Shown in pieces: positions 5,602-63,994 of a stretch of DNA of 64,000 nucleotides. Position 1 is the first letter of the stretch, and each line of letters starts with the position of its first letter. The DNA is from Candidatus Iainarchaeum sp. (GTDB lineage Archaea; Iainarchaeota; Iainarchaeia; Iainarchaeales; JAZDFD01). The DNA is taken from NCBI GenBank assembly GCA_043808155.1, contig JAZDFD010000026.1, positions 19,817 to 83,816 on the forward strand, given 5' to 3'. The position numbers and the translations under genes were made by a program. Below the pieces are notes generated by a model. That model did no database searches. It was not told the DNA's origin and was given only the letters and a program-made list of their open reading frames with translations.

Positions 5602-8133
5602 ATGAAAAAAATAGTCTTGATTTTAATTTTTTTTCTAGTTTTGCTGACATTTGTTTCTGCTGTAACTGATTATTATTTGGGTTGCAGAAGTGATTCAGAA
5701 TGTGACCCAGATGAAATTTGTGCAGGTTATGGTGATGGGGCGGGAAACATTACAGGGAAGTGTGTTCCAGATCCAGGATATGTTGAATGTGATGATGACT
5801 GGGATTGTGATCTTATAAATAGTTATAATTATGGCTGGCTCTGTAAAGCGGGAATATGTGCTCCTTTAGAACGTTTTAAGGGGGAGGGGGTAGAAATAGA
5901 AAAATGTAATGATGGAAAAGATAATGATAATGACGGAGATGCAGATTGTGCTGACACAGACTGTTATGATTCTGTTTTTTGTTATGAAATGCTTTGTGAT
6001 GATGAATTAGATAATGATTTTGATGGTTACACTGATTGCGATGATTCTGATTGTTCAATAGATCCTGAATGCAGACAAATGATGACGTTTGAAATAAGTA
6101 AGGAATCAATTACTGCCGATGATTCAGATTTTATTGAAATTGAAGTTTCTGTGAATGACGCAGATGGTAATCCCGTGGCAGGAGAAAATATTATTGTTTG
6201 GATTGAAACATCGGACTGGGGCTGGCAGGATTTTATTGGTTTTCCAAAACCGCAGGAAGGAACAACAGATGCAGATGGAAAATTCACTTCACAATATTCT
6301 GCAGATGAAATTTACGAGGAATGGGCAGATGGAAAAGACTTCAAAAAAATCCCTGCAACAATTTATGCAAAGCATTTGAAAAGTGAAACAACACTTTCAC
6401 AAGATATTGAAATTACAGCACCAACAAGAGCAAAAATAATGGTTGTTGAAGCAGTGCAATCAATTAGATCTGAAAAAGCCATGCTTGTTTCTGGAAAGAA
6501 AACCGTTGTGTTTGTTGGCATACGTGCAAAAGATGTATCATTTTTCGAAGAGAATGATTCTTTTGAAGCATACTTAGATTTAGAAATGATTGGAAGTGAG
6601 TTCTCACCTACAAATAGTTTCCAAAGAATTCCAATTGAAGCGTCACAATTTAATAGAATTGAAAATTATGGCGGAGATATTGAAAGAAGAACAAATGTTG
6701 ATGAACACTTGGATTTCTTTTATTTTAATCCTGATGATTCTGAAAGAAACAAATGGGTTTTTTATGAATTTTACGTTGACGGACTAGACACAAAATACAA
6801 TGGAAAATATGATTTCAAAGCTAAACTTTACATTGAACAGGATGCGGATTTATTTGGAAAGGAAACAGTTGTCCTTAGTGAAAGAGGCGCGATTTACGAT
6901 GTTTTTTCTTCCGGATTTGTTTCTGTAAAATTAGTTCCAATTGGTTTGGGGCTTTGGCATGATGATTTGTGTGAATATTGCGTAACTTCAAAAGACACAT
7001 CTGGTTTTGCGGAAAAAGTAAATCAAATTTTAAGTTACATTCCAAAAAGGATTGCAGCTGAGTTGGGAAACGCGTCCGCAAAAAATGCATTGTATGAATT
7101 TGATAATTGCAATCCTGCAAGTTTCAGACCTCTAGGTGGTGGTGCAAATTTCACAGGTATTTTAGATTTGCAGAAACTTCAAAGTATAATCAATAAAGAT
7201 AATTCTCCAGTGCGTGAAGTTTGTAAAGATGGAATAAATAATTTATTTTCTGAATCTGACTGGCAAAATTTAGCATCACAATCACCGATTGTTGGTTTTG
7301 ATGAAAAAACAGGGCTTGAAAGATACCTGGAAAAAGCAAATGACAGTAAAAGTTTTTTCAAAGCAGTTATGCCTCTTGCAGAAGAAAACATTTATTTCCA
7401 AACGTCAACAGAACCATTTTCTGCTTACATAAATCCAAAAACAAATTCTCCTTTAATGATAATGGCAGCTTTGCACGATGTGGAAGTTGGAAGAAGATGG
7501 TCACGTTCATTGTATAGTCCCGATTTTCTTTTTGAAAAGATTACGGGTTTAGATTCTGCAGATATTAATCCCTACAAAATAAAAGGTTTTGACAGAGTCA
7601 TTGGATTTGTTCCAACAAACCGTTCACAAGTAAGTGATTTTACTTATTTTGGAGATAAAGATACTTTTGGTTATTCAAGTGGTGTTAATAGATATGCTGC
7701 TTTGGTAGATCTTGATGCTGCAGGAAAAGAAACAATGGTACATGAACTTTTGCATACTTATTGTGCGAAAGATGAATATGGCGGATTAGGAACTGCAGGT
7801 TATGGTGAGGTTGTAAATGCAATTGTCTGCTCAGAAGGATTTGAAGCAATAAACTCTAATAAAGGAGAAACTATTGCGGGAACAGAAGTAACAAATGGTT
7901 TCTGGGTTGAGAAAAGAAAGTTTATGGGCACACCATCATCACCGCTTTATTCTATAATGGGCGAATCAGATCAGATGGGGAATATGTGGATTACAGATGA
8001 CCTTTACACAGGTGTTGGTGTAAAACTAAGAACATTCCCTTACCCAACAAAAAGCATTTTTGAATATATTGGGGATTACACTACTCTAACCTATCCTGGC
8101 AAACAATACATAACAGGTGAGACTAGTGAATAA
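5602..8133 (+). CDS. large secreted protein: Cys-rich/DNDxDG metal-binding-like repeats, Ig-like segment, C-terminal HExxH region (putative metallopeptidase)
   Basis: Signal peptide MKKIVLILIFFLVLLTFVSA. KCNDGKDNDNDGDADCADTDC and CDDELDNDFDGYTDCDDSDC are MopE-type CxDGxDNDxDG motifs. DSDFIEIEVSVNDADGNPVAGENIIVW is Big_1-like. HELLH lies within ETMVHELLHTYCAKDEYG. Confidence 0.65.
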   Translation: MKKIVLILIFFLVLLTFVSAVTDYYLGCRSDSECDPDEICAGYGDGAGNITGKCVPDPGYVECDDDWDCDLINSYNYGWLCKAGICAPLERFKGEGVEIEKCNDGKDNDNDGDADCADTDCYDSVFCYEMLCDDELDNDFDGYTDCDDSDCSIDPECRQMMTFEISKESITADDSDFIEIEVSVNDADGNPVAGENIIVWIETSDWGWQDFIGFPKPQEGTTDADGKFTSQYSADEIYEEWADGKDFKKIPATIYAKHLKSETTLSQDIEITAPTRAKIMVVEAVQSIRSEKAMLVSGKKTVVFVGIRAKDVSFFEENDSFEAYLDLEMIGSEFSPTNSFQRIPIEASQFNRIENYGGDIERRTNVDEHLDFFYFNPDDSERNKWVFYEFYVDGLDTKYNGKYDFKAKLYIEQDADLFGKETVVLSERGAIYDVFSSGFVSVKLVPIGLGLWHDDLCEYCVTSKDTSGFAEKVNQILSYIPKRIAAELGNASAKNALYEFDNCNPASFRPLGGGANFTGILDLQKLQSIINKDNSPVREVCKDGINNLFSESDWQNLASQSPIVGFDEKTGLERYLEKANDSKSFFKAVMPLAEENIYFQTSTEPFSAYINPKTNSPLMIMAALHDVEVGRRWSRSLYSPDFLFEKITGLDSADINPYKIKGFDRVIGFVPTNRSQVSDFTYFGDKDTFGYSSGVNRYAALVDLDAAGKETMVHELLHTYCAKDEYGGLGTAGYGEVVNAIVCSEGFEAINSNKGETIAGTEVTNGFWVEKRKFMGTPSSPLYSIMGESDQMGNMWITDDLYTGVGVKLRTFPYPTKSIFEYIGDYTTLTYPGKQYITGETSE

Positions 8134-9326: not shown

Positions 9327-10346
9327 ATGGTGCGTTACAGAACTTTAATTTTTGTTTTGATTCTTCTAGTGGTGGTTCTTTTTGGATTATTTTTCATTAA
9401 TGGACTTTTAGATGAGAATAGAGAAATTGTTGAAGCTATTTTTGGAAGTGAGTTTGTAAACGGAACAGAAAACAATAATGAAAATACAGGCGGACTTTTT
9501 GATGGATTTAATATTTTTGGTTCAGGATCACAAATTGTTTTTGCACAAAATAGTAGCGGAGAAAATATAATTCCAACTAGCAGTAATCCTGTTTGGAGTG
9601 ATGATAGCAAAACTCTTGCTTTTTCAACTTCAGGGGGGCTCATTTACGGGACAAATGTTAATGGTAGTGATTTTTGGCAGATAACAGGGGATGACCTTGA
9701 TAAATATGGGCGAACAAGAGGCGCAATACCAAAAAACGACCCTAAAAGTTCTGATTTATTGTATATTGCAAACATTGAAAGTGACCATTATGGTTCCTAT
9801 ACTCATATTATAAGTAAAATTTCATTTGATGGACAAACTATTGATGACTATGTGAGATTTGTTGCAGATCAAAAAGTATATGGTTTTATGATAAGTCCTG
9901 ATGGTTCTAAAATTATTAGTGCTGGTTTGTTGTTTAATGTAACTAGTGATGACAAAGTTTTGAAAGGCAAGGCGATAGAGCTCTCTGGTTGGTGTTTAGA
10001 GTTTAGTTATGATTCAGAGTATATTATTTGCATAAATGGCAATTCAGTATATCAGTATGAGATTGCGACTGGGGCACAGGACGAAATAATGAGTATAAAT
10101 TGTACTTATGGAGATTATTGTGCTAGTGAAAATAAAATCGCATGTTTTGGAAATAATGATTCTGATTTGTCATGTAACCCACTTGTAATTTATGATTTGA
10201 ACTCAAAAGAAAAAAGTGACTTAATTTGTGAAACAAATATTATTACTGCATCACATCCTAGTTGGAGTCCAGATTGCAGTAAAATTGCTTATCGTGCTTA
10301 TGACCATCTTAATGGTGCAATGATAAAAATAGTGGAGGTTAGTTAA
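9327..10346 (+). CDS. TolB-like beta-propeller (PD40-repeat) protein, N-terminal membrane anchor
   Basis: Starts 2 nt after the previous stop. PD40-like repeats PVWSDDSKTLAFS, ISPDGSKIIS and HPSWSPDCSKIAYRA. Confidence 0.55.
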   Translation: MVRYRTLIFVLILLVVVLFGLFFINGLLDENREIVEAIFGSEFVNGTENNNENTGGLFDGFNIFGSGSQIVFAQNSSGENIIPTSSNPVWSDDSKTLAFSTSGGLIYGTNVNGSDFWQITGDDLDKYGRTRGAIPKNDPKSSDLLYIANIESDHYGSYTHIISKISFDGQTIDDYVRFVADQKVYGFMISPDGSKIISAGLLFNVTSDDKVLKGKAIELSGWCLEFSYDSEYIICINGNSVYQYEIATGAQDEIMSINCTYGDYCASENKIACFGNNDSDLSCNPLVIYDLNSKEKSDLICETNIITASHPSWSPDCSKIAYRAYDHLNGAMIKIVEVS

Positions 10347-10772
10347 ATGAAAAAAATAGTATTAGTATTACTCCTAGTATCCACAATTCTTTTTTCCGGG
10401 TGCTTGGATGATTTTGGAGGAAAGCCAAAAATAGTTTTCAAAGGCATGGATGACGTAAGAGTACCTGAAGAATGTGCAGACGTAAAAGATGATGTTTGCG
10501 GATTGTTTAGTTGTATGGTTGACCTTTGTTGGTGCAAAGAAGGACCAGATATGATTCTTTACGAACCAAATACTGATGTCTCAAGTAATACTGAAGCAAC
10601 ACAGCTTGTAATGACTTACATCAGTGAAAACAGTCTGAATCTTACAGTAACAAACTCAGTACAGCTTAACACAGTGTTCTATAATGTTTTTGCAGAAGAT
10701 TCTTCTGGTAATGAAGAAGTATTCACAGTTGCTGCAGATGGAACAATTATACAAACAATTTGCGGTGTTTAA
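10347..10772 (+). CDS. small Cys-rich lipoprotein
   Basis: Starts at the base after the upstream stop. MKKIVLVLLLVSTILFSGC lipobox. Confidence 0.55.
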   Translation: MKKIVLVLLLVSTILFSGCLDDFGGKPKIVFKGMDDVRVPEECADVKDDVCGLFSCMVDLCWCKEGPDMILYEPNTDVSSNTEATQLVMTYISENSLNLTVTNSVQLNTVFYNVFAEDSSGNEEVFTVAADGTIIQTICGV

Positions 10773-10802
10773 GAAAAAGAATTAAGAAATAAGGTTTTGT
10801 AA

Positions 10803-11525
10803 TTGGAAAGATTCTGGGAAATTGATTCATTAAGGGGCATTGCGCTTTTGGGAATGCTCCTTTCAAACCTTATTACGGATTTGGCGTATTTTAATTTCCT
10901 AGACATTAACATATCCTCTGGTTTTTGGTGGTGGTTTGCAAGAATTGTTGCAGGCACTTTTATTTTTTTAGTGGGGGTTTCATTAACTTTGAGCTACTCA
11001 AAAGCAAAACAAAAAATATCTGAAAAACAACTTCTTTTGAAATACATAAAAAGAGGCTTAAAAATTTTCTCATGGGGTTTAGCAATCACATTAGTTACCT
11101 GGATTTTCATTCCTCAGGATTTCGTTGTTTTTGGAGTTCTCCATCTGATTGGAGTTGCAATAATACTTTCATATCCTTTTCTAAATAAAAAACTTCCAAA
11201 TTTAATTTACGGAATTTTCATTTTTTTGTTTGGTTTGTGGTTATCGAATTTCACGTTTGATTTCAATTTACTTTTATGGCTGGGTTTCATTCCTGCGAAT
11301 TTTCACACTGTAGATTATTTTCCATTACTTCCGTGGTTTGGTGTGATTCTTTTAGGAATTTATTCAGGAAATAGATTTTATGAAAATTATAAAAGAACAT
11401 TTGCAGTTCCAAAATGGAAAAATTCACTAAGTGTAAAAGGTCTTTCATTCCTTGGAAAACATTCTCTTAAAATTTATTTAATACATCAACCAATAATTCT
11501 GATAATTTTATTTTTCTTGTTTTAA
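10803..11525 (+). CDS. DUF1624/heparan-alpha-glucosaminide N-acetyltransferase-like membrane protein
   Basis: 240 aa, TTG start in the track. N-terminus RFWEIDSLRGIALLGMLLSN and a multi-TM body match my memory of DUF1624. Confidence 0.55.
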   Translation: MERFWEIDSLRGIALLGMLLSNLITDLAYFNFLDINISSGFWWWFARIVAGTFIFLVGVSLTLSYSKAKQKISEKQLLLKYIKRGLKIFSWGLAITLVTWIFIPQDFVVFGVLHLIGVAIILSYPFLNKKLPNLIYGIFIFLFGLWLSNFTFDFNLLLWLGFIPANFHTVDYFPLLPWFGVILLGIYSGNRFYENYKRTFAVPKWKNSLSVKGLSFLGKHSLKIYLIHQPIILIILFFLF

Positions 11526-35830: not shown

Positions 35831-36067
35831 ATGAATGTAAATCTTGGAATCCCTTATGAAGCAATTGTAAACAAAGCTATAGACAAGGGTTATGCAGGCA
35901 ATCAAACAGAAGTTATAAGACAAGCCCTGCTTGCTTATGATAGAATACTGGAAGAAGAGGAAAAAGAACTTGTTGCCAAGGCAATTAAAATAGAAATGAG
36001 TGAAGTAAAAGCAGGTAACATTAAAACAAAATCTTTTGATGCAATGAAAAAAAAGTTCAAGTGGTAA
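35831..36067 (+). CDS. ribbon-helix-helix antitoxin (TA pair 1)
   Basis: 78 aa. N-terminal RHH pattern (NLGIPYEAIVNKAIDKGYAGNQTEVIRQALL). The stop is 1 nt before the toxin start. Confidence 0.65.
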   Translation: MNVNLGIPYEAIVNKAIDKGYAGNQTEVIRQALLAYDRILEEEEKELVAKAIKIEMSEVKAGNIKTKSFDAMKKKFKW

Positions 36068-36068
36068 A

Positions 36069-36329
36069 ATGGAAGTAAAGATTCTTGAAACCGCTGAAAA
36101 AGAGCTTGAAAAAATAGTTAACCCCCTAAACAAGCAGTTCGGAAAACATATTGAAAAAATTGCTTCAAATGAAACAAGCAGACACCTGAAACATGGTTTG
36201 CAGTATTTCACCGAAAATGTTACAAAACAGGCTAGAATTGTTTACTATTTTGAGGAAAAAACTATTTATGTAATGCACTGCTTCAAAAACCACAAAGAAT
36301 ACGAAAGATGGTATAAATCATTTAAATAA
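36069..36329 (+). CDS. RelE/ParE-superfamily-like toxin (TA pair 1)
   Basis: 86 aa. RHLKHGLQYF and NHKEYERWYKSF are shared with the second toxin at 42116-42379. Size and genetic coupling fit a type II toxin. Confidence 0.65.
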   Translation: MEVKILETAEKELEKIVNPLNKQFGKHIEKIASNETSRHLKHGLQYFTENVTKQARIVYYFEEKTIYVMHCFKNHKEYERWYKSFK

Positions 36330-36380
36330 GTTCTGGTTTTTTATTCTTTTGCCTCACTTCTAATTATAGCCATTATTGGC

Positions 36381-36442
36381 ATAATGCGAACGACGTGAGC
36401 AAGTGCTACCGAAGGTGCACACGCACTCGCCGGGCGCTCGGC
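36381..36442 (+). ncRNA. structured 5' leader of tRNA-Leu (L1): ATAATGCGA ... CGCCG-GGCGCT-CGGC(G) hairpin abutting tRNA position +1
   Basis: GC-rich in an AT-rich region. It starts with the same 9-mer (ATAATGCGA) and ends with the same hairpin as the leader of tRNA-Ala (63758-63825). Hairpin at 36428-36443. Confidence 0.45.
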
Positions 36443-36612
36443 GCACGGGTACCGAAGTGGTTAAACGGGACAGACTCAAAAAAACTTTTAGAAAAAGTTT
36501 TAGCAAAAGAAACTTTTCAGAAAAGTTTCATCAAAACTAAAGCTTTATCTTTATTGAATTTGAGAGATCTGTTGGCTTAGTGCCTCCGTAGGTTCGAATC
36601 CTGCCCCGTGCA
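36443..36612 (+). tRNA. tRNA-Leu(CAA), class II, with an 86-nt intron at the canonical 37/38 position (intron about 36481-36566)
   Basis: Hand-folded. Acceptor GCACGGG/CCCGTGC, anticodon stem ACAGA/TCTGT, loop CTCAAA|..|A, 15-nt variable arm, T arm GTAGG-TTCGAAT-CCTGC, discriminator A. The intron 3' end TTTGAG pairs with CTCAAA. No encoded CCA. Confidence 0.85.
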
Positions 36613-36709
36613 TAGCCGGTTTCGTCCGGCTGTACCGAGATATGTGCACTGTTGCTTTGTGCAACAGCGCAGTAATATTTTTCGGAAACTGTGTCATAGC
36701 AAAAAGCGT
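36613..36709 (+). ncRNA. conserved structured tRNA trailer module, copy T1
   Basis: UUCG-capped hairpin 36614-36631, the 12-mer CCGAGATATGTG at 36635-36646, hairpin GCACTGTTGC/GCAACAGCGC, GTAATAT, and TCGG closing on CCGA. About 87% identical to 63899-63994, with compensatory stem changes. Confidence 0.55.
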
Positions 36710-36775
36710 ACCCGATTTCTGCTTAGCAGAAATGGGCGCATTTCATCAGAGCTGAAATAGCGTGGCACCCGTACT

Positions 36776-36809
36776 CGCCGGACGTGACGGCGGAATCCTG
36801 CCCTGTACA
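36776..36809 (+). other. leader-type hairpin (L3) fused to a remnant of a tRNA 3' end
   Basis: CGCCG-GACGTGA-CGGCG is followed by GAATCCTGCCCTGTACA. That matches the tRNA-Leu 3' end GAATCCTGCCCCGTGCA (36596-36612) at 15 of 17 positions. No complete cloverleaf can be folded. Confidence 0.4.
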
Positions 36810-36939
36810 ATTTTCTGATTTATGAAGCGGTACGGATTAGCGAAATAGTAATTAGGGTTCGTGGGTGTGGGATTTCCTGTAGAATGAAAAGAATTAAATA
36901 AAAGAAGAACCACTATTTTTCTACTGAGTGAGTAATAAA

Positions 36940-37383
36940 ATGCCTGCGAAAAGACCAAAGTACATCTCAAAATTTAGTGCAAGAAGGCGAAGAGCTAATA
37001 CTGAAGCAAGAAAACAATTTCCGGAATGCGGAACCAAAGATGAAACATTTCAAATATTCCGCAATGCTTATCATGCGATAATTCTCGCTGAGGAATTCGG
37101 GGGGCTTAATTCTCCTGCAGTCAGAACAAAACTTCGTTTTATCCATCCAGAGGAACGCCTGCTTCTCCGAAAATATATCGCTAAAACAACCCGTGACCCA
37201 ATTCAGCGGCGGATTGTTTGGGAACTTTTAAAGCTTGAGAAAGAGCGTGGCAGATATATTTATCCTGACTTCCCAGAAGTGAAACTAACCAGACCGGAAA
37301 TTAATGCACTTAAAAAAGCACAGGCAGAAATTAATGAACATAAAAAGAAAAAGACTTCCACGCTTAAATTTAAAAGCAGATAA
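36940..37383 (+). CDS. hypothetical basic protein (orphan)
   Basis: ORF; I prefer ATG 36940 (MPAKRPKYISKF...) over the GTG at 36928. Its last ~20 nt belong to the duplicated cassette 37363-37432. Confidence 0.5.
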   Translation: MPAKRPKYISKFSARRRRANTEARKQFPECGTKDETFQIFRNAYHAIILAEEFGGLNSPAVRTKLRFIHPEERLLLRKYIAKTTRDPIQRRIVWELLKLEKERGRYIYPDFPEVKLTRPEINALKKAQAEINEHKKKKTSTLKFKSR

Positions 37384-37432
37384 AGCGTATTCTATGCATG
37401 AGAAAAATATTTTTACTTTTGATAATTTCTTT
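37363..37432 (+). repeat. 70-nt exact direct repeat, copy 1 (3' end of the upstream ORF, intergenic region, and signal-peptide start of a lipoprotein gene)
   Basis: CTTAAATTTAAAAGCAGATAAAGCGTATTCTATGCATGAGAAAAATATTTTTACTTTTGATAATTTCTTT is identical at 38720-38789. Weaker similarity continues about 60 nt further. Confidence 0.9.
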
Positions 37433-38624
37433 ATTGATTTTTGGATGTGTTGAAAATAATCTTCCTGGGAATGGAAGCGCAGATGATACGGATAATTTCA
37501 TGAATGATGCGGATAATTTGGATAATGGGGCAAATGAAAATACAAATAACATTGGGGATGAAAAAATTAAATCTGATGATTTGCAGGATACTCCAAGTGG
37601 GGATGGGATTTCTGAAGATGAAACCCAGGACGAGGATATTCAAAAATCTGCGTTAATACAATTGAACGAATTCGATATGTTAGACCAATACAAAAAGGAA
37701 TTTGTAAGAGATTTTGATATTCTTGAATGCCAGAGCAAAACTTATTTTACAGATGCCAGCATCACTGAGGTTATTGATTGGTATTATTCTGATCTGCCTT
37801 ATACCTTAGTTTCAAAAGATGTTTTTAATCCCCCAGAAAATCCGGATGTTGAAATAGGGTATCTCGTTTTTAAAAAAGAAAATACAGGAATATATATAGA
37901 TGTGCAGCCGGCTGAAACAATTCCTATAGCTACAGGCAAAACCTTAATCATCTATGCTGAATGCCCATGGGCTATGCTTAAGGAAGTGGTTGGTGATGTC
38001 AGCGGAGAGCTTGGTGTTGAAGGAGACATTGACTGGTCAGACGCTTATGTTTTTGAGGATCCGGAAGCTGATTTCTGGAAAGGAAGCGGTTCACCACCGG
38101 AAATAATAAACTATCCGCCATCAGACATTCTGAAAATATATGTAAAGAATGATGACGCTTATCTTTATGTTAAATATGAAGTAGCAGGACAAATACCTGC
38201 ATTGCCATACAAATATGGTGAAGACACAATAAGGATATTTACATATTTTACGCTTATAGATAAGGATCAAAATCCAAGCACAGGAATTAAGAATGGGTAT
38301 ACTGGTGCTGACCTTGCATTGGATTTTTGGTTTGGTTCCCCTCCAGAAGCAAATGGCAAGATGTATTCATTAATCCAATATGCTTTTTATGATCCTGCAG
38401 GAGAAGAGGAGCTCGGCTCGTTCAATGATGGCGGAACTCTGATTGCAGGAGGATTAGGATATACTTATGTGGCATCAAAGTATAAACTTGCAGACCTGGG
38501 ATTGAAAAAAGGCGATACCATCAATATTTTCCCTTTGATTGAAGTAGAAAGTGATTCCTACCATCACTTTGCCAGGGATGTATACAAAAAAGATGTTGAA
38601 TGGACTTCCATAAACATAAAGTAA
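37398..38624 (+). CDS. lipoprotein, function unknown
   Basis: MRKIFLLLIISLLIFGC lipobox; 408 aa; acidic N-terminal linker. Confidence 0.65.
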   Translation: MRKIFLLLIISLLIFGCVENNLPGNGSADDTDNFMNDADNLDNGANENTNNIGDEKIKSDDLQDTPSGDGISEDETQDEDIQKSALIQLNEFDMLDQYKKEFVRDFDILECQSKTYFTDASITEVIDWYYSDLPYTLVSKDVFNPPENPDVEIGYLVFKKENTGIYIDVQPAETIPIATGKTLIIYAECPWAMLKEVVGDVSGELGVEGDIDWSDAYVFEDPEADFWKGSGSPPEIINYPPSDILKIYVKNDDAYLYVKYEVAGQIPALPYKYGEDTIRIFTYFTLIDKDQNPSTGIKNGYTGADLALDFWFGSPPEANGKMYSLIQYAFYDPAGEEELGSFNDGGTLIAGGLGYTYVASKYKLADLGLKKGDTINIFPLIEVESDSYHHFARDVYKKDVEWTSINIK

Positions 38625-38719: not shown

Positions 38720-38789
38720 CTTAAATTTAAAAGCAGATAAAGCGTATTCTATGCATGAGAAAAATATTTTTACTTTTGATAATTTCTTT
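38720..38789 (+). repeat. 70-nt exact direct repeat, copy 2
   Basis: Identical to 37363-37432. It supplies the 5' UTR and the first 12 codons of the 38755 gene. Confidence 0.9.
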
Positions 38790-40062
38790 GTTAATTTTGG
38801 GGTGTGCAAACAACAACCTGCCTGCAAATGAAAGCACAGATGATAATAATGGTTTAGATGTGCCTGATAACACTCAGGACACAACAGATACAGAACCTGA
38901 TGAAGTAATTCCTGATGTAGAACCAGTGCCTAATATTTTTATTGATGCAAGTACTCCAAGCGGACCTTATAATGAAGGCGATGAATTTGATATTGAATAT
39001 ACTGTAGAAAATATTGGGGACACTATCAAAGGATACATTGTTAGTGTTTGTGAAAAAGCAGGATTTGAAGCAAAGTGCAGAACAAAAACAGTGAAAGATA
39101 TAGGCACTCATAATTCATCATTAGTTAATTGTGATTTTACGGAAGAAGATGCAATTTGCGATGAAGAAACATTAGGCACTAATGGAATATACACTTATTC
39201 AGTTTTAGTTTATGATTGTGCAGATTTAGAAGACGCAACTGACATGGACTGTTCAGAAGTGGAAAAATCTGCAATTCCTGAAAGTGTTGAACCATTAAAA
39301 ACATTTGAAAAAGAAATTGAAGTTGGCGGGGAATCAAATGATGATGAAGACTCTGATACGGATTCAGATAGTGGAACTACACAAGGTGCCATAACCGACT
39401 TCCGAACAATTGACCCAAACTGGAAATGTAATTTTATAATGGATTCAGAAGACCCAACAGATATTTGGAGATATTCAAAGTTAGATACAGATATTAGCAT
39501 TGCATGTGGTAAGGCAATCTTAATTCAGGAAACAGTAAATCAGCCTCTGAGACCAGTATATAATATTTCATTTAATTATAGTGATACTTTCTCCGCACAA
39601 TATGCAGGTAATGGTGAAATTATAATCAGTCACTTGGGAACTGCACAGTCTGCATTCAAAGATGTTTTAATTCATGAATTAACACACAGTGCATTAGACG
39701 AAATCCCATTGCCAGTCTGGTTTGAAGAAGGAATTGCCGAAAGAATGGTTGATTTAGTCAATGAGCAAGACACATCACTTTGGCGAGTTTACATAAAAGA
39801 TATTGAAACATTAGATCCTTTTGATACTGGTGATGGAGTAGATAATTCAATTAATTATCGATATGCAAATTATACTGTAAAGAAATTTGTTGAAAAATAC
39901 GGGTATGATGCATTAAGAGAGACTATTCAATTTGTTAAAGATGAACAGGAATGGGGAAACATAAACAAAAGAAACCAAGTTCTTGTTAATGCAGCAATTG
40001 ACGCCACTGGCGATTCTTCAATCACACTAGATAAATTAGCTTATCCAAAAAACTACGAATAA
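38755..40062 (+). CDS. lipoprotein with peptidase-MA-like HExxH ... WFEEG motif
   Basis: MRKIFLLLIISLLILGC lipobox. LIHELTHSAL followed by PVWFEEGIAERM matches the zinc-metallopeptidase MA-clan pattern. Confidence 0.65.
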   Translation: MRKIFLLLIISLLILGCANNNLPANESTDDNNGLDVPDNTQDTTDTEPDEVIPDVEPVPNIFIDASTPSGPYNEGDEFDIEYTVENIGDTIKGYIVSVCEKAGFEAKCRTKTVKDIGTHNSSLVNCDFTEEDAICDEETLGTNGIYTYSVLVYDCADLEDATDMDCSEVEKSAIPESVEPLKTFEKEIEVGGESNDDEDSDTDSDSGTTQGAITDFRTIDPNWKCNFIMDSEDPTDIWRYSKLDTDISIACGKAILIQETVNQPLRPVYNISFNYSDTFSAQYAGNGEIIISHLGTAQSAFKDVLIHELTHSALDEIPLPVWFEEGIAERMVDLVNEQDTSLWRVYIKDIETLDPFDTGDGVDNSINYRYANYTVKKFVEKYGYDALRETIQFVKDEQEWGNINKRNQVLVNAAIDATGDSSITLDKLAYPKNYE

Positions 40063-42643: not shown

Positions 42644-42706
42644 AAATAATCACCTATCATAATGATATACAAAGAAATATTTAAAGATATCGATTCAAAA
42701 ATAAAA

Positions 42707-42790
42707 CGCAAGGGACGAGATTCGAACTCGCGCTTCCCGAAGGAAACGGGCTTAGCAGGCCCGCGCATTAAACCACTCTGCCACCCTTGC
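42707..42790 (-). tRNA. tRNA-Ser(GCT), class II, no intron
   Basis: Minus strand reads GCAAGGG TG GCAGAGTGGTTTAATGC G CGGGC CTGCTAA GCCCG TTTCCTTCGGGAAG(C) GCGAG TTCGAAT CTCGT CCCTTGC G. Confidence 0.9.
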
Positions 42791-42798
42791 ACAACCCG

Positions 42799-42926
42799 AT
42801 TGCGTACGGGTACTCCGCGTGCCATTTTCAATGGCACTGTCATCATTTCTGATTGCGTAGATTGGATCCGCAATTCCGCAATGCAATATGTGTGAGTTTT
42901 CGTTTGACTCAAACCCACGATAATAT
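42799..42926 (+). ncRNA. GC-rich structured region: three-way-junction-like fold (42799-42882) plus the fourth copy of the core hairpin module (42886-42926)
   Basis: ATTGCG occurs twice (42799, 42852) and CGCAAT twice (42869, 42877), giving nested helices. There is a 7-bp hairpin GTGCCAT/ATGGCAC. ATATGTGTGAGTTTTCGTTTGACTCAAACCCACGATAATAT is about 85% identical to the tRNA-Glu intron core. The strand is assigned by homology and is antisense to the tRNA-Ser leader. Confidence 0.4.
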
Positions 42927-42968
42927 ATCATAAATTAGAGAAACTAATATAAAACGCGCCTAAGCTTA

Positions 42969-53942: not shown

Positions 53943-54113
53943 GCCCCTGTAGTGTAGCGGCCAAGCATCCTGCCCTTTCAAACCCGCTTTCGAGCGGGTG
54001 GGCCGAGATATGTGTGTTATTTCGTTTTGACTCAATAACACGATAATATTTGAAATCATATCTTAGGCTTTCGAAGACAGGCGGTGACCCGGGTTCGAGT
54101 CCCGGCGGGGGCA
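53943..54113 (+). tRNA. tRNA-Glu(TTC) with a 98-nt intron at or near position 37/38 (about 53981-54078)
   Basis: Hand-folded. GCCCCTG TA GTGT AGCGGCCAA GCAT C CTGCC CTTTCA|intron|A GGCGG TGAC CCGGG TTCGAGT CCCGG CGGGGGC A. Exon CTTT pairs with intron GAAG, leaving a 3-nt ACA bulge at the 3' splice site (relaxed BHB). Confidence 0.85.
53983..54068 (+). ncRNA. conserved structured module, copy inside the tRNA-Glu intron
   Basis: CCCGCT-TTCG-AGCGGG hairpin (53983-53998), the 12-mer CCGAGATATGTG (54003-54014), hairpin GTGTTATT/AATAACAC, and CGATAATAT. Collinear with the tRNA-Leu and tRNA-Ala trailers. Confidence 0.55.
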
Positions 54114-60614: not shown

Positions 60615-61397
60615 ATGGAAAAGAAATTAATTTTCGGGATTCTTGCTATTTTTGCAGTTGTTTTATTGAGCGGGTGCATTGAAGAAAAACCTCTTGCTAA
60701 TAACACAATAACGGACAATACGGTAACAGGAAATGAAAATGTTTCAATGGATTTTTCTTCGGAGCCTTGCAGTGAGGATGTGGACGCTTATGACCCCTCA
60801 ATTCCAAAAGTTATAGAAAAAAATTGGGAGGATAATTCAACATTAAAAGTCCGGGCTTATGTGAGGACCAACTGTGCGGAGGATGTTCTTAACGGGGATT
60901 TCAAAATTGAGGAAAATAAAATAACTTTAGTCTACGAGGCTTCAGATTGCATGGAAACCGAAATGGGCTGTGCGGAATGCGACTGCGTGCATGAAATAAA
61001 TTACACGTTCAGCAACATTGCAAAGAAAGAGTATGAATTTGAGATTGAAAAGAGTTATGAGCCCGCAAATGAAAATGTCCGGATGGATTTTTATGCTGAG
61101 CCCTGCGATCAAGACATAAACCCCTACGACGAATCAATTCCCAGGGTGCTTGAAACTAACTGGGCAAATAATTCAACTTTGGAAGTGATGGTACGTGTTG
61201 CAATAAATTGCGCAGAAAGCATTTTGAGCGGGGATTTTGAGATTGAAGGAAATAAAATAATTTTGAGTTATGAATCAACTTATTGCGGGGATAACGAAGA
61301 AGGCTGTACTCTGTGCAACTGCGCGCATGATTTGATTTACACATTTACGAATATTGCAAAGAAAGAGTATGAATTTGAGATTAGTGAGATAAGCTAA
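60615..61397 (+). CDS. lipoprotein built from two tandem ~110-aa Cys-containing repeats
   Basis: MEKKLIFGILAIFAVVLLSGC lipobox. ATG 60615 is preferred; the track start at 60387 overlaps the upstream gene. Confidence 0.65.
   Translation: MEKKLIFGILAIFAVVLLSGCIEEKPLANNTITDNTVTGNENVSMDFSSEPCSEDVDAYDPSIPKVIEKNWEDNSTLKVRAYVRTNCAEDVLNGDFKIEENKITLVYEASDCMETEMGCAECDCVHEINYTFSNIAKKEYEFEIEKSYEPANENVRMDFYAEPCDQDINPYDESIPRVLETNWANNSTLEVMVRVAINCAESILSGDFEIEGNKIILSYESTYCGDNEEGCTLCNCAHDLIYTFTNIAKKEYEFEISEIS
60732..61394 (+). repeat. intragenic tandem duplication, period 336 nt (60732-61067 and 61068-61394)
   Basis: NENVSMDFSSEPC...NIAKKEYEFEI versus NENVRMDFYAEPC...NIAKKEYEFEI. The two copies share an identical 30-mer ATTGCAAAGAAAGAGTATGAATTTGAGATT near their ends. 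Confidence 0.85.
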
Positions 61398-62178: not shown

Positions 62179-63660
62179 ATTCCAGCTGATCCTGCTGGCG
62201 GATACTGCTATCGAAGTTCGAATTAGACATGCAAGTCTTATGAGCAATCTATGGTGTTCATGGCAAACGGCTCAGTAACACGTAGATAACCTAACCTCAG
62301 GAGGAGGCAAACCCGGGAAACTGGGCTTAATTCTCCATAGGAAATTGATACTGGAAGGTTCTTTTTCTCAAAGGATTTAATCCATGATTTAAATCCGCCT
62401 GAGGATGAGTCTGCGGTGGATTAGGTTGTTGGCGGGGTAAATGCCCACCAAGCCTAAGATCTGTACGGGCCTTGAAAGAGGTGGCCCGGAGAAGGACACT
62501 GAGATAAGGGTCCTAGCCCCACGGGGTGCAGCAGTCGCGAAACCTCTACAATGCACGAAAGTGTGATAGGGGAACTTCGAGTGCGCTCTCTGAGTGCTTT
62601 TGCCAAGCCTAAAAAGCTTGGCGAATAAGTGGGGGGTAATATACGTGCCAGCCGCCGCGGTAATACGTAACCCACGAGTGGTATCCACTAATATTGGGCC
62701 TAAAACGTCTGTAGCCTGTTTTGTAAGTCTTTTGTGAAATCAGCCAGCTCAACTTGTTGAATTGCAAAAGATACTGCACGACTCGAGGCCGGAAGAGGTA
62801 AAGGGAATTTCAGGGGTAACGGTGAAATGTTATGATCCCTGAAAGACCACCAGTAGCGAAGGCGCTTTACCAGGACGGTCCTGACGGTGAGAGACGAAAG
62901 CTGGGGGAGCGACCAGGATTAGATACCCTGTTAGTCCCAGCCGTAAACGATGTGGACTAGGTGTCCTAATACCTAAGAGGTATGGGGGTGCCGAAGCGAA
63001 GGCGTTAAGTCCACTGCCTGGGGAGTATAATCGCAAGGTTGAAACTTAATGGAATTGGCGGGGGCGCACTACAAGGGGTGGATGCTGCGGTTCAATTGGA
63101 TTCAACGCCAGATATTTTACCAGAAACGACAGCAGAGTGATGGTCAGTCTGAAGGGCTTACCTGACGCGCTGAGAGGTGTTGTATGGTCATCGTCAGCTC
63201 GTACTATGAAGCGTCCTGTTAACTCAGGCAACGGGCGAGACCCATATTCTTAGTTGCTATTGCTCAATTTGGGTAAGCACTCTAGGAAAACTGCATGTGT
63301 AAACATGAGGAAGGAATGGGCAACGGTAGATCTGTATGGCCCGAATTTTCTGGGCAACACGCGGCATACAATGGTTAATACAATGGGCTCCGACTCCGAA
63401 AGGAGAAGGTAATCTCCTAACATTAACCTTAGTTCGGATTGAGGGTTGTAACTCACCCTCATGAAGCTGGAATCCCCAGTAATCGGAAATCACTATTTTC
63501 CGGTGAATAAGTCCCTGCGCCTTGCACACACCGCCCATCAAGCCAGCTGAATGGAGTTTAGATGAATTGCACTCAACCGAGAGTAATAATTCTGGGCTCT
63601 GTAAGGCGGGCTAAGTTGTAACAAGGTGTCCGTAGGGGAACCTGCGGACGGATCACCTCC
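62179..63660 (+). rRNA. 16S (SSU) ribosomal RNA, archaeal type, ~1482 nt, no large insertion
   Basis: 5' ATTCCAGCTGATCCTGCTGGCGG; GTGCCAGCCGCCGCGGTAATAC at 62645; GGATTAGATACCC; 3' GGAACCTGCGGACGGATCACCTCC. Confidence 0.95.
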
Positions 63661-63698
63661 TATATTGAATAACAAACGTTATTCATTTTTGGAAAGGC

Positions 63699-63757: not shown

Positions 63758-63825
63758 ATAATGCGAGCACAAAAGTGCGAGCCAGTCCCACTACAGGTGG
63801 GACCCGCACCCGCCGGGCGTTCGGC
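63758..63825 (+). ncRNA. structured 5' leader of spacer tRNA-Ala (L2)
   Basis: Starts with ATAATGCGA. Contains hairpins GCAC-AAAA-GTGC and GTCCCAC-TACAG-GTGGGAC. Ends with CGCCG-GGCGTT-CGGC(G) (63811-63826), whose last G is tRNA position +1. Confidence 0.45.
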
Positions 63826-63898
63826 GGGCTCGTAGCTCAGTTGGTAGAGCGCTGCCCTTGCACGGCAGAGGCCACGGGTTCGAATCCCGTCGAGTCCA
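63826..63898 (+). tRNA. tRNA-Ala(TGC) in the 16S-23S spacer
   Basis: GGGCTCG TA GCTC AGTTGGTA GAGC G CTGCC CTTGCAC GGCAG AGGCC ACGGG TTCGAAT CCCGT CGAGTCC A. The G3:U70 identity pair is present. Confidence 0.92.
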
Positions 63899-63994
63899 AG
63901 TCCGGTTTCGACCGGACGTACCGAGATATGTGCACTGTTGCTTTGGCAACAGCGCGGTAATATATTTCGGAAACCGTGCCACAGCACAAAGCGT
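63899..63994 (+). ncRNA. conserved structured tRNA trailer module, copy T2
   Basis: GTCCGGT-TTCG-ACCGGAC (63900-63917), CCGAGATATGTG (63921-63932), the GCACTGTTGC/GCAACAGCGC hairpin, and GTAATAT..TCGG. Collinear with 36613-36709. Confidence 0.55.

Follow-up and report, generated by a model that had tools for sequence, protein, structure and literature searches.

The 64 kb stretch of the Candidatus Iainarchaeum sp. genome analyzed in this work (contig JAZDFD010000026.1, positions 19,817 to 83,816; hereafter the window) harbors several copies of a short structured module, here called M, which a preliminary description had noticed as a 3' trailer common to two unrelated transfer RNA (tRNA) genes. 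The comparative analysis of this module revealed that M is not a tRNA-specific trailer or signal; indeed, it was also found inside a tRNA-Glu intron and in intergenic DNA devoid of tRNA genes, and the idea of a trailer proper to tRNA genes is not supported. We suggest, giving this idea roughly even chances of being correct, that M represents a new family of small, self-folding, dispersed, mobile or intron-like elements of DPANN ('Diapherotrites') archaea. The conserved core of M, about 70 nucleotides (nt) long, extends a few bases beyond UAAUAU. The copies detected are eight full-length ones at six loci and two decayed ones (ten model matches), coming from the window, which at 64 kb is a small genome sample, and from three other sources.

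The window is AT-rich (35% GC), and its scanning over the whole length with Rfam 15 at the gathering threshold returned a 16S ribosomal RNA (rRNA) gene (62179-63661, + strand) and five tRNA genes. A covariance model built from six copies of M (R1) detected in the same stretch three full copies, scoring 82-86 bits, and two decayed ones; M or a remnant of it touches, or lies inside, four of the five tRNA genes. The first copy (36613-36685, + strand, R1 85.7 bits) starts right after the discriminator base, A36612, of tRNA-Leu(CAA) (36443-36612, + strand, Rfam tRNA 41.2 bits), a gene with a canonical AT-rich intron of ~86 nt (about 36481-36566) containing internal inverted repeats (36479-36529). 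In this copy, hairpin i with its UUCG loop spans 36614-36631, the linker and a 12-mer 36635-36646 and hairpin iii approximately 36645-36672, followed by UAAUAU (36673-36678) and by a run of five T (36678-36682). The second copy (63899-63970, + strand, R1 82.3 bits, fold z-score -5.6) is located right after tRNA-Ala(TGC) (63826-63898, + strand, Rfam), in the 16S-23S spacer, and carries the 12-mer at 63921-63932, UAAUAU at 63958-63963 and a broken T run (TATATTTC). The two starts, 36613 and 63899, are in agreement with the original placing of the module directly after both discriminators. The third copy (53981-54056, + strand, R1 85.1 bits) begins with nucleotide 1 of the intron of tRNA-Glu(UUC) (53943-54113, + strand; Rfam tRNA 38.8 bits and hand reading). 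The two tRNAs with long canonical introns (~86 and ~98 nt) are both missed by ARAGORN and detected by the Rfam tRNA model. Within the 64 kb, the 12-mer, CCGAGATATGTG, is restricted to copies of M, being found three times in all, and the three full copies are all sense to a stable-RNA precursor and start exactly at a processing site. The decayed copies lie beside tRNA-Ser(GCT) (42706-42791, - strand, Rfam), whose 5' end they contact: one (42793-42853, + strand, 25 bits, E ~1e-4), lacking AGATATGTG, is 1-2 nt from that end on the opposite strand, and the other (42863-42933, + strand, 30.4 bits, E ~4e-6) has a hairpin iii loop like that of the tRNA-Glu intron copy.

The tRNA-Glu intron, of the canonical (37/38) type, extends over about 53981-54078 (~98 nt), and its 3' tail, CAUAUCUUAGG, pairs back with the 12-mer of M. 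The predicted minimum free energy fold of this copy exhibits the anticodon stem, a 3-nt bulge ACA (the 3' site), a 4-bp UUUC/GAAG helix and an AA(A) bulge (the 5' site, 37/38), with hairpin i of M directly after the latter. According to this predicted fold, the tRNA-Glu copy may be assigned to the archaeal introns with a bulge-helix-bulge (BHB) structure, and it is the only type of copy for which such an assignment appears to hold. In the folds, computed with flanks, of the tRNA-Leu and tRNA-Ala copies and of those at two loci of another genome (L003 and L005, described below), no BHB was found at the boundaries of M, and the flanks of the non-intron copies form local hairpins and contain direct, non-complementary repeats.

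As for its anatomy, M consists of a 6-7 bp hairpin with a UUCG loop, a linker (G-NN-CCGA) and a long hairpin, in which the lower helix GAUAU/AUAUU and the internal loop are invariant and the upper helix is free to vary and yet remains paired. The left hairpin begins 1-3 nt from the junction, and the dinucleotide CA precedes the hairpin i end in every copy (GCA, CCA, TCA(A), GCA, TCA and GCA). The UUCG loop, the G after hairpin i, CCGAGAUAUGUG and UAAUAU (UAAUAG at one locus, L035) are constant across the full-length copies. Both hairpins are 93-95% paired and 11 of their 16 pairs show double-sided changes, in the six model copies as well as in the ten matches, the alignment of the latter being fitted to R1 and leaning, for this reason, towards the structure. 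None of 500 shuffles equaled the 11 double-changed pairs of 16, and sliding the register lowered the pairing to 27-58%. The same two helices were recovered independently by RNAalifold from the first, six-copy alignment, together with the lower helix GAUAU/AUAUU, which is made up of invariant bases. These data are in agreement with the view, originally based on two copies, that structure rather than sequence is conserved in M. The compensatory pairs on which that view was founded (A36614-U36631 to G63900-C63917 and G36615-C36630 to U63901-A63916) proved correct base by base, as did the change of the U36620.U36625 mismatch into the pair U63906-A63911. The second hairpin described as having 10 bp does exist, with one A.C mismatch among its pairs, and the four-part anatomy of 97 nt holds as far as the presence of a structured module is concerned; however, the core is limited to ~70 nt and the CCGA/TCGG closure is specific to the tRNA-Leu and tRNA-Ala copies. 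Indeed, the long hairpin is closed by CCGAGA/UUUCGG in these two copies, by CCGAGAUAUG/CAUAUCUUAGG, from the intron tail, in the tRNA-Glu introns and by flanking sequence at L005. Since the closure varies among the copies, the invariance of the 12-mer cannot be accounted for by pairing alone. Downstream of UAAUAU, the tRNA-Leu copy has a run of five T, which is broken in the spacer and intron copies, both of which need read-through. The counts of G.U versus A.C pairs do not decide which strand of M folds. The resemblance of its internal loop (UAUGUG / CRRUAAU) to the 11-nt tetraloop-receptor motif might be taken as a lead only.

The homology between the tRNA-Leu and tRNA-Ala loci is not confined to M. 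The two trailers are 89.4% identical over 94 nt in a BLAST alignment (36616-36709 versus 63902-63994), which is close to the approximately 12 substitutions and one indel over 97 nt counted previously by hand, and the similarity runs past 36709 up to the end of the window, located 102 nt past tRNA-Ala, with the 23S side lying outside. Moreover, the alignment revealed that the two tRNAs share ~60 nt of 5' leader, ~70% identical (36381-36442 versus 63758-63825); a simple duplication of a tRNA gene is, as anticipated in the preliminary description, insufficient to explain the shared module. The leader module, LM (36381-36442, + strand; alignment and BLAST), is composed of a hairpin, H, and of the GC hairpin CGCCGGGCGCUCGGCG, which abuts position +1 of tRNA-Leu; its counterpart in the tRNA-Ala leader lies at 63758-63825 (+ strand, alignment). 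On the 3' side, M is followed by an extension (36686-36708, + strand) in common with the spacer copy (63971-63994) and containing the 5' arm of a post-module hairpin H (GUGUCAU...GUGGCAC; 5' arm 36691-36697, 3' arm 36762-36768). In the loop of this hairpin, a 53-nt element with two hairpins, E2 (36709-36761, + strand; ACCCG-hairpin-GGGCGC-hairpin-AGCG), is nested, with AGCG at both junctions; E2 is not present in the spacer copy and has the appearance of an independent small module, mobile or invertible. Then come a third copy of the leader motif, LM' (GUGGCACCCGUACUCGCCGGACGUGACGGCGG, 36762-36793, + strand, alignment), and a direct repeat (36793-36809, + strand) of the last 17 nt of tRNA-Leu (gaatcctgccctgtaca, 36596-36612), with two mismatches. 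Overall, the tRNA-Leu 3' locus thus reads as M plus 112 nt (a 180-nt insert), after which 17 nt of the tRNA 3' end recur, and the GC-rich structured island at this gene (~36370-36840) is larger than the 97 nt noticed previously. The motif formed by hairpin H and CGCCGG-loop-CGGCG has three occurrences: it precedes both tRNA-Leu and tRNA-Ala, and it also closes the tRNA-Leu insert, right ahead of the duplicated tRNA 3' end. At the ends of the 180-nt insert, and only there, loosely similar inverted hairpins (hairpin i and LM') were recognized by eye.

Further copies of M were detected both in the window, by scanning with a covariance model as recommended in the preliminary description, and in other genomes, mainly through pattern searches. 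The searches in sequence collections required the exact 12-mer plus TAATAT, missing variants such as L035 (TAATAG), and the resulting counts represent lower bounds. Among species-representative genomes, six hits to the exact pattern were obtained, one genome among them being a true one (CAZILS01, an archaeal metagenome-assembled genome of ~50% GC; loci L003, L005 and L037). The metagenome scan gave one true hit (L009), an orthologous tRNA-Glu intron with M, and a further tRNA-Glu intron with M (L035) was reached through the neighboring proteins (UbiA 91% identical). Hence, the contexts of M are the tRNA-Leu trailer, the tRNA-Ala spacer, the tRNA-Glu intron (window, L035 and L009), the position antisense beside tRNA-Ser, and the L003 and L005 loci; no detected tRNA adjoins the CAZILS01 copies. 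No copy was found in ~110 kb of loci from intermediate and distant relatives (L034, L036 and L038-L044). In spite of the different base composition of the two genomes (35% versus 50% GC), hairpin i and the 12-mer are 97% identical over 33 nt.

The two CAZILS01 loci show how M is placed with respect to its neighbors. At L003, in the gap between the PGDH and RtcB genes, a 68-nt M is flanked on either side, without any intervening base, by a direct repeat of 35 nt (34/35 identical between the two repeats). The repeat reproduces the final 11 codons of RtcB, a minus-strand gene, together with its stop codon; PGDH ends immediately before the left repeat and both genes are intact. This copy ends with UAAUAU-U, that is, at the point where the T5 of the tRNA-Leu trailer would stop transcription. 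In the L037 region (9494-11449), the insert is found immediately downstream of the archease and RtcB genes, where a conserved cluster of RNA polymerase, ribosomal protein and elongation factor genes comes to an end; the proximity of M to tRNA-splicing ligase genes in this genome is possibly a coincidence. At L005, two copies of M form a 100-nt tandem, Y-M-Y-M-Y, in which Y (GGGCGGACUGAGGG, minus strand) represents the last 14 nt of a candidate C/D small RNA (sRNA) at 7309-7376 (- strand). The latter has C (AUGAUGA), D' (CCGA), C' (AUGACGA) and D (CUGA) boxes and a CCC/GGG terminal stem; its similarity to sR2 (20 bits) is under the Rfam gathering score, and its features are convincing. In the three repeat-flanked cases, the repeats measure 35 nt (L003), ~14 nt (L005) and 17 nt (window tRNA-Leu), the hairpin i end abuts a repeat directly and the other end is placed 0, 16 and 112 nt, respectively, before the second repeat. 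Each duplicated segment shares one of its boundaries with the 3' end of a gene: the RtcB stop codon, the end of the candidate sRNA and the tRNA-Leu discriminator.

The comparison with relatives of the window allowed us to evaluate the turnover of M. A syntenic contig, L033, comes from a close relative (TyrRS 85% identical, promoter region 91% identical) and has the same gene order, i.e., CTP-transferase, TyrRS, a ParD/ParE-like pair and tRNA-Leu. Its intron-bearing tRNA-Leu is the ortholog of that of the window (85% identical), but the leader and the trailer are completely different: R1 does not find M at this gene, and LM is missing from its leader. In its place, a 62-nt insert is followed by an exact repeat of the last 19 nt of the tRNA-Leu gene (2508-2526 and 2588-2606); the duplicated 3' end is thus present in both lineages and the content between the repeats differs. 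Within the 62-nt insert, GGGCAG is able to pair with a proximal CUGCCC, and an AT-rich hairpin resembles motifs of the tRNA-Leu intron. E2 is found inverted in the L033 tRNA-Leu leader (2250-2305), where a stretch of 60 nt is ~78% identical and both stems differ in a compensatory manner. At the tRNA-Glu locus, between the window and L035, the intergenic DNA beside the gene is 90.5% identical and the intron is identical except for hairpin iii, where two adjacent T-A pairs are replaced by C-G, both sides having changed, and the loop is remodeled. These changes indicate either selection in place on the helix or conversion from another copy. Concerning the genes around tRNA-Leu, the ParD-like/ParE-like toxin-antitoxin pair (35831-36329), whose position between TyrRS and tRNA-Leu is kept in L033, is worth mentioning, together with the ~550 nt (36811-37362) that separate the tRNA-Leu locus from the next gene and are missing from L033.

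On the basis of these comparisons, we infer that M is mobile, that its copies arose by insertion events and that they are removed from transcripts by RNase Z or by the splicing endonuclease EndA. According to this model, copies would come and go, or be overwritten, as DNA; the hairpin i end would be joined to the target just after CA, and the insert would be bracketed by a duplication of 14-35 nt ending at the 3' end of the neighboring gene (tRNA-Leu, RtcB and the candidate C/D sRNA). M might survive where the transcript is discarded, that is, in tRNA 3' trailers (removed by RNase Z), in the rRNA spacer and in short intergenic gaps, and the tRNA-Glu intron copy would be removed at the BHB by EndA. 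The compact fold might spare the adjacent tRNA or BHB from disturbance, and the hairpins and the invariant motifs may be what a mobilizing activity recognizes. The idea that M is an element of this kind is favored by the insert of L003 between repeats of the RtcB 3' end, the tandem of L005 and the 17-nt repeat at tRNA-Leu, as well as by the flank difference with L033, the nested and inverted E2, the near-identity of hairpin i and the 12-mer across genomes of different GC content, the lack of copies in ~110 kb of loci from intermediate relatives, the variety of contexts and the absence of matches in Rfam and in phage, plasmid and viral collections. Of the three roles proposed in the preliminary description (a co-transcribed small RNA, a protein-binding or processing signal and a domesticated mobile intron-like element), the comparative data thus favor the last one, given the tRNA-Glu intron, the repeat-flanked intergenic copies and the lack of a match at L033.

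As for the mobilizing mechanism, only conjectures can be advanced. The copying of a processed trailer or intron through RNA fits the data slightly better than the insertion of DNA at a staggered cut, because the length of the duplication is variable and one end is precise and the other ragged. The L003 copy matches exactly a trailer RNA that would begin at the RNase Z site and end with the oligo-U stop, suggesting that M may have spread by the copying of processed trailer or intron RNA, with variable duplications. However, no reverse transcriptase was seen near the copies of M. In its most explicit form, this idea would make M a mobile element acting at the RNA level and existing in several states (tRNA trailer, BHB intron, rRNA-spacer cargo and free intergenic insert), a proposal that we regard as doubtful.

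Several observations do not fit easily the idea of a mobile or intron-like family. A strict empty site is lacking, since the RtcB gene closest to that of the L003 genome is only 70% identical (L038) and this locus shows only that RtcB can abut a convergent gene stop-to-stop; moreover, to judge from a faint similarity in sequence, the 62-nt trailer of L033 may be a badly decayed relative of M, and the contrast between presence and absence would not be clean. The absence of terminal inverted repeats, combined with duplications of 14, 17 and 35 nt, fits no known transposase. Neither a transposase, nor an integrase, nor a reverse transcriptase was found near any copy with Pfam and PHROGs, and no transposase appeared among the best 25 of the 61 Pfam families matched by 51 open reading frames (ORFs) of the window, a genome-wide search for partner genes not having been made. 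The tRNA-Glu introns keep M over a background divergence of ~10%, with compensatory changes at two adjacent pairs, which would point to the fold being selected at this locus, an outcome that a functional RNA would lead one to expect just as much. Lastly, the sharing of both leader and trailer by tRNA-Leu and tRNA-Ala is not explained by the independent insertion of M alone.

The main rival explanation, which we consider rather unlikely and which, like those treated below, does not mutually exclude the mobile or intron-like family, is that M is a functional small RNA or a protein-binding domain without a promoter of its own, riding on the processing of tRNA and rRNA. Cleavage by RNase Z downstream of tRNA-Leu and tRNA-Ala would free the 5' end of M, and the intron copy would be excised, and perhaps circularized, through the action of the splicing endonuclease and RtcB, an arrangement known from snoRNA-type genes of archaea and eukaryotes; CCGAGAUAUGUG, UAAUAU and UUCG would form a binding or recognition surface. 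The invariance of the 12-mer, of UAAUAU and of the UUCG loop while both stems covary freely is what one would expect of such an RNA, and the same can be said of the two adjacent T-A to C-G changes in orthologous introns at 90% background identity, of the sense orientation of the three full window copies in highly expressed stable-RNA precursors, from processing sites onwards, and of the T run, kept as T5 in the tRNA-Leu copy and broken in the spacer and intron copies that are read through. Nevertheless, R1 does not find M at the orthologous tRNA-Leu of L033, the decayed copies are antisense to tRNA-Ser, those of L003 and L005 have no obvious expression context, M was found in very few genomes, neither 16S nor the rest of the window contains a complement of the 12-mer, and features of C/D, H/ACA or K-turn RNAs were revealed neither by eye nor by Rfam.

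The sharing of flanks by the two tRNAs might also suggest that gene conversion or segmental copying brought to the tRNA-Leu locus an ectopic copy of what surrounds the spacer tRNA-Ala, i.e., of an rRNA-spacer processing sequence, as in the dead rRNA-operon fragment envisaged in the preliminary description. This would account for a homology on both sides of two different tRNAs (~70% in the leader and 86-89% in the trailer) and for the third leader motif at 36762-36793, as expected from a copied unit formed by M, the extension and LM, and it is in agreement with L033, where the tRNA-Leu flanks of the window appear lineage-specific. We nonetheless judge it very improbable as a full explanation: M folds locally and covaries instead of behaving as one strand of a long-range stem, it is found in a tRNA intron and at loci of another genome that are neither rRNA nor tRNA, Rfam detects no 16S or 23S fragment near tRNA-Leu, and the exchange of the tRNA between the flanks is left unexplained, given that the gene order and the tRNA-Leu intron have been kept. 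In particular, its internal pairing, with covariation, and its presence outside rRNA operons make it improbable that M is merely one strand of the 23S processing stem; the scenario in which the spacer copy is just the 5' strand of that stem, contemplated in the preliminary description, is improbable for the same reasons. As for the wider flanks of tRNA-Leu, which resemble the spacer on either side of the tRNA, they might have originated from an rRNA operon. An explanation to which we likewise give little credit is that M and the leader hairpins act in cis as insulators or processing clamps, keeping the tRNA folded for RNase P and RNase Z in an AT-rich genome, the tRNA-Leu copy of M also supplying a transcription stop (hairpin plus T5). 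Indeed, hairpins lie beside the ends of the tRNA-Leu, tRNA-Ala and tRNA-Ser genes of the window and also, unrelated in sequence, of the L033 tRNA-Leu, and a terminator-like scan matches 36657-36672 plus TAATATTTTT. On the other hand, the sequences on both sides of tRNA-Glu and tRNA-Asn, and that downstream of tRNA-Ser, are simply AT-rich and contain T runs, which excludes a general requirement, and the invariant 12-mer, the intron copy and the non-tRNA copies would remain without an explanation.

The search for a correspondence between M and RNA or DNA elements of known type gave the following results. The Rfam scan is in agreement with the original statement that the module belongs to no known RNA family: in the region 36300-36900, at E<=10, only weak noise was obtained over 36613-36710, and no match was obtained for L003 and L005. 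A C/D or H/ACA guide sRNA was discarded since the alignment shows no RUGAUGA, CUGA or ACA boxes in any copy and there is no Rfam hit; no complement of the 12-mer was found, with up to two mismatches, in 16S or elsewhere in the window. The helices or motifs required for a K-turn, an H/ACA pocket, a 5'-cleaving ribozyme of the hepatitis delta virus-like or hatchet type and an integron attC site are missing by eye, as are those of a leader-trailer BHB and of a T-loop intron that would exploit the repeated tRNA-Leu 3' end further downstream. A classical miniature inverted-repeat transposable element (MITE) was discarded for its lack of terminal inverted repeats, the ends of M (AGCCGG... and ...GGTAATAT) not being complementary, and for the flanking duplications, which have no fixed length (35, ~14 and 17 nt). 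A palindromic element derived from IS200/IS605 would agree with the hairpins and with the constant CA junction, but the insert is flanked by long duplications, and the left hairpin is placed 1-3 nt away from the junction. Two scans of viral contigs yielded chance matches or nothing, BLAST searches against phages and plasmids gave nothing meaningful, and in the literature we found no description of a matching element for Diapherotrites or DPANN, nor of tRNA-linked MITE-like repeats in archaea.

Some other features of the window deserve a brief mention. Downstream of the tRNA-Leu locus, an ORF (36928-37383) encodes a lysine/arginine-rich protein of 151 amino acids with no Pfam or PHROG match. 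A direct repeat of 126 nt (37363-37488 and 38720-38845, 88% identical) covers the upstream region and the signal-peptide start of two adjacent secreted paralogues of 408 and 435 amino acids, which share the start MRKIFLLLIISLLI. An internal direct repeat of 161 nt (60886-61046 and 61222-61382, 73% identical) is located inside a gene for a cysteine-rich secreted protein, and cysteine-rich repeat proteins are encoded by several other genes of the window.

Different known systems share some of the properties of M. Insertions of the casposon or integrase type take place at the 3' ends of genes, among them tRNA genes, and they resemble M in the duplication of a 3'-end site that leaves the gene whole and in the tandem array with copies separated by the target (L005). 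However, M is short (68-180 nt) and non-coding, it has no inverted terminal repeats, its duplications are inconstant, and no Cas1 or integrase was seen. MITEs, IS200/IS605-derived elements and repetitive extragenic palindromes, including bacterial interspersed mosaic elements (REP/BIME), are likewise small, devoid of coding capacity and present in several copies, with a hairpin close to each end, and M further recalls repeats of the MITE type in its intact, tandem and decayed copies, in the apparent differences of presence and in the short fixed junction motif (CA). The differences concern the terminal inverted repeats, lacking in M, the duplications, which are long and variable instead of short and fixed (MITEs) or absent (IS200/IS605), and the two hairpins, which are unlike each other; moreover, M is not known to have a partner transposase. 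Small RNAs are also known in archaeal tRNA introns, such as the box C/D sRNA of tRNA-Trp, and in dicistronic tRNA-snoRNA genes. With these, M would have in common a structured RNA lying in an intron, after a tRNA or in the pre-rRNA spacer and released by host processing; it differs from them in having no C/D, H/ACA, K-turn or 16S antisense features and in having copies that are also antisense or apparently unexpressed. If M were a functional RNA, it would constitute a new class of tRNA- and rRNA-linked small RNAs in the little-studied DPANN archaea. Whatever its nature, flanks of this type can mislead the annotation of tRNA ends and rRNA spacers.

The closest parallel concerns the tRNA introns of Thermoproteales, where similar introns are shared by unrelated tRNAs and are considered transposed (Fujishima et al. 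2010, as summarized in PMC4090602), the mechanism being described as unknown. The chemistry of insertion is likewise left unknown in the model of Sugahara et al. (2012), in which mobile elements account for the disruption of tRNA genes (PMC3293823). M differs in being found also in trailers, in an rRNA spacer and in gaps between protein-coding genes, in its two-hairpin fold with invariant motifs, in the duplicated gene 3' ends of 14-35 nt with no recombinase-bearing element, and in the host, a DPANN archaeon and not a member of Thermoproteales or Caldiarchaeum. What they have in common is the near-identical non-coding sequence at unrelated tRNA genes, the canonical BHB intron represented by one copy, the fragments of tRNA 3' ends beside the insert and the gain at the DNA level that can be deduced. 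The gain of archaeal tRNA introns and the sharing of introns by unrelated tRNAs have been an open issue since the report of 'intron transposition' in Thermoproteales. A single, easily modeled module occurring inside and outside introns, with insertion-like scars at some copies, such as the duplicated 3' ends of genes, the tandem and the nested modules, represents a family that can be traced across genomes and RNA data. If a mobile element acting at the RNA level were indeed at work, M would provide a direct example of the birth of archaeal tRNA introns from insertions beside or within stable-RNA genes.

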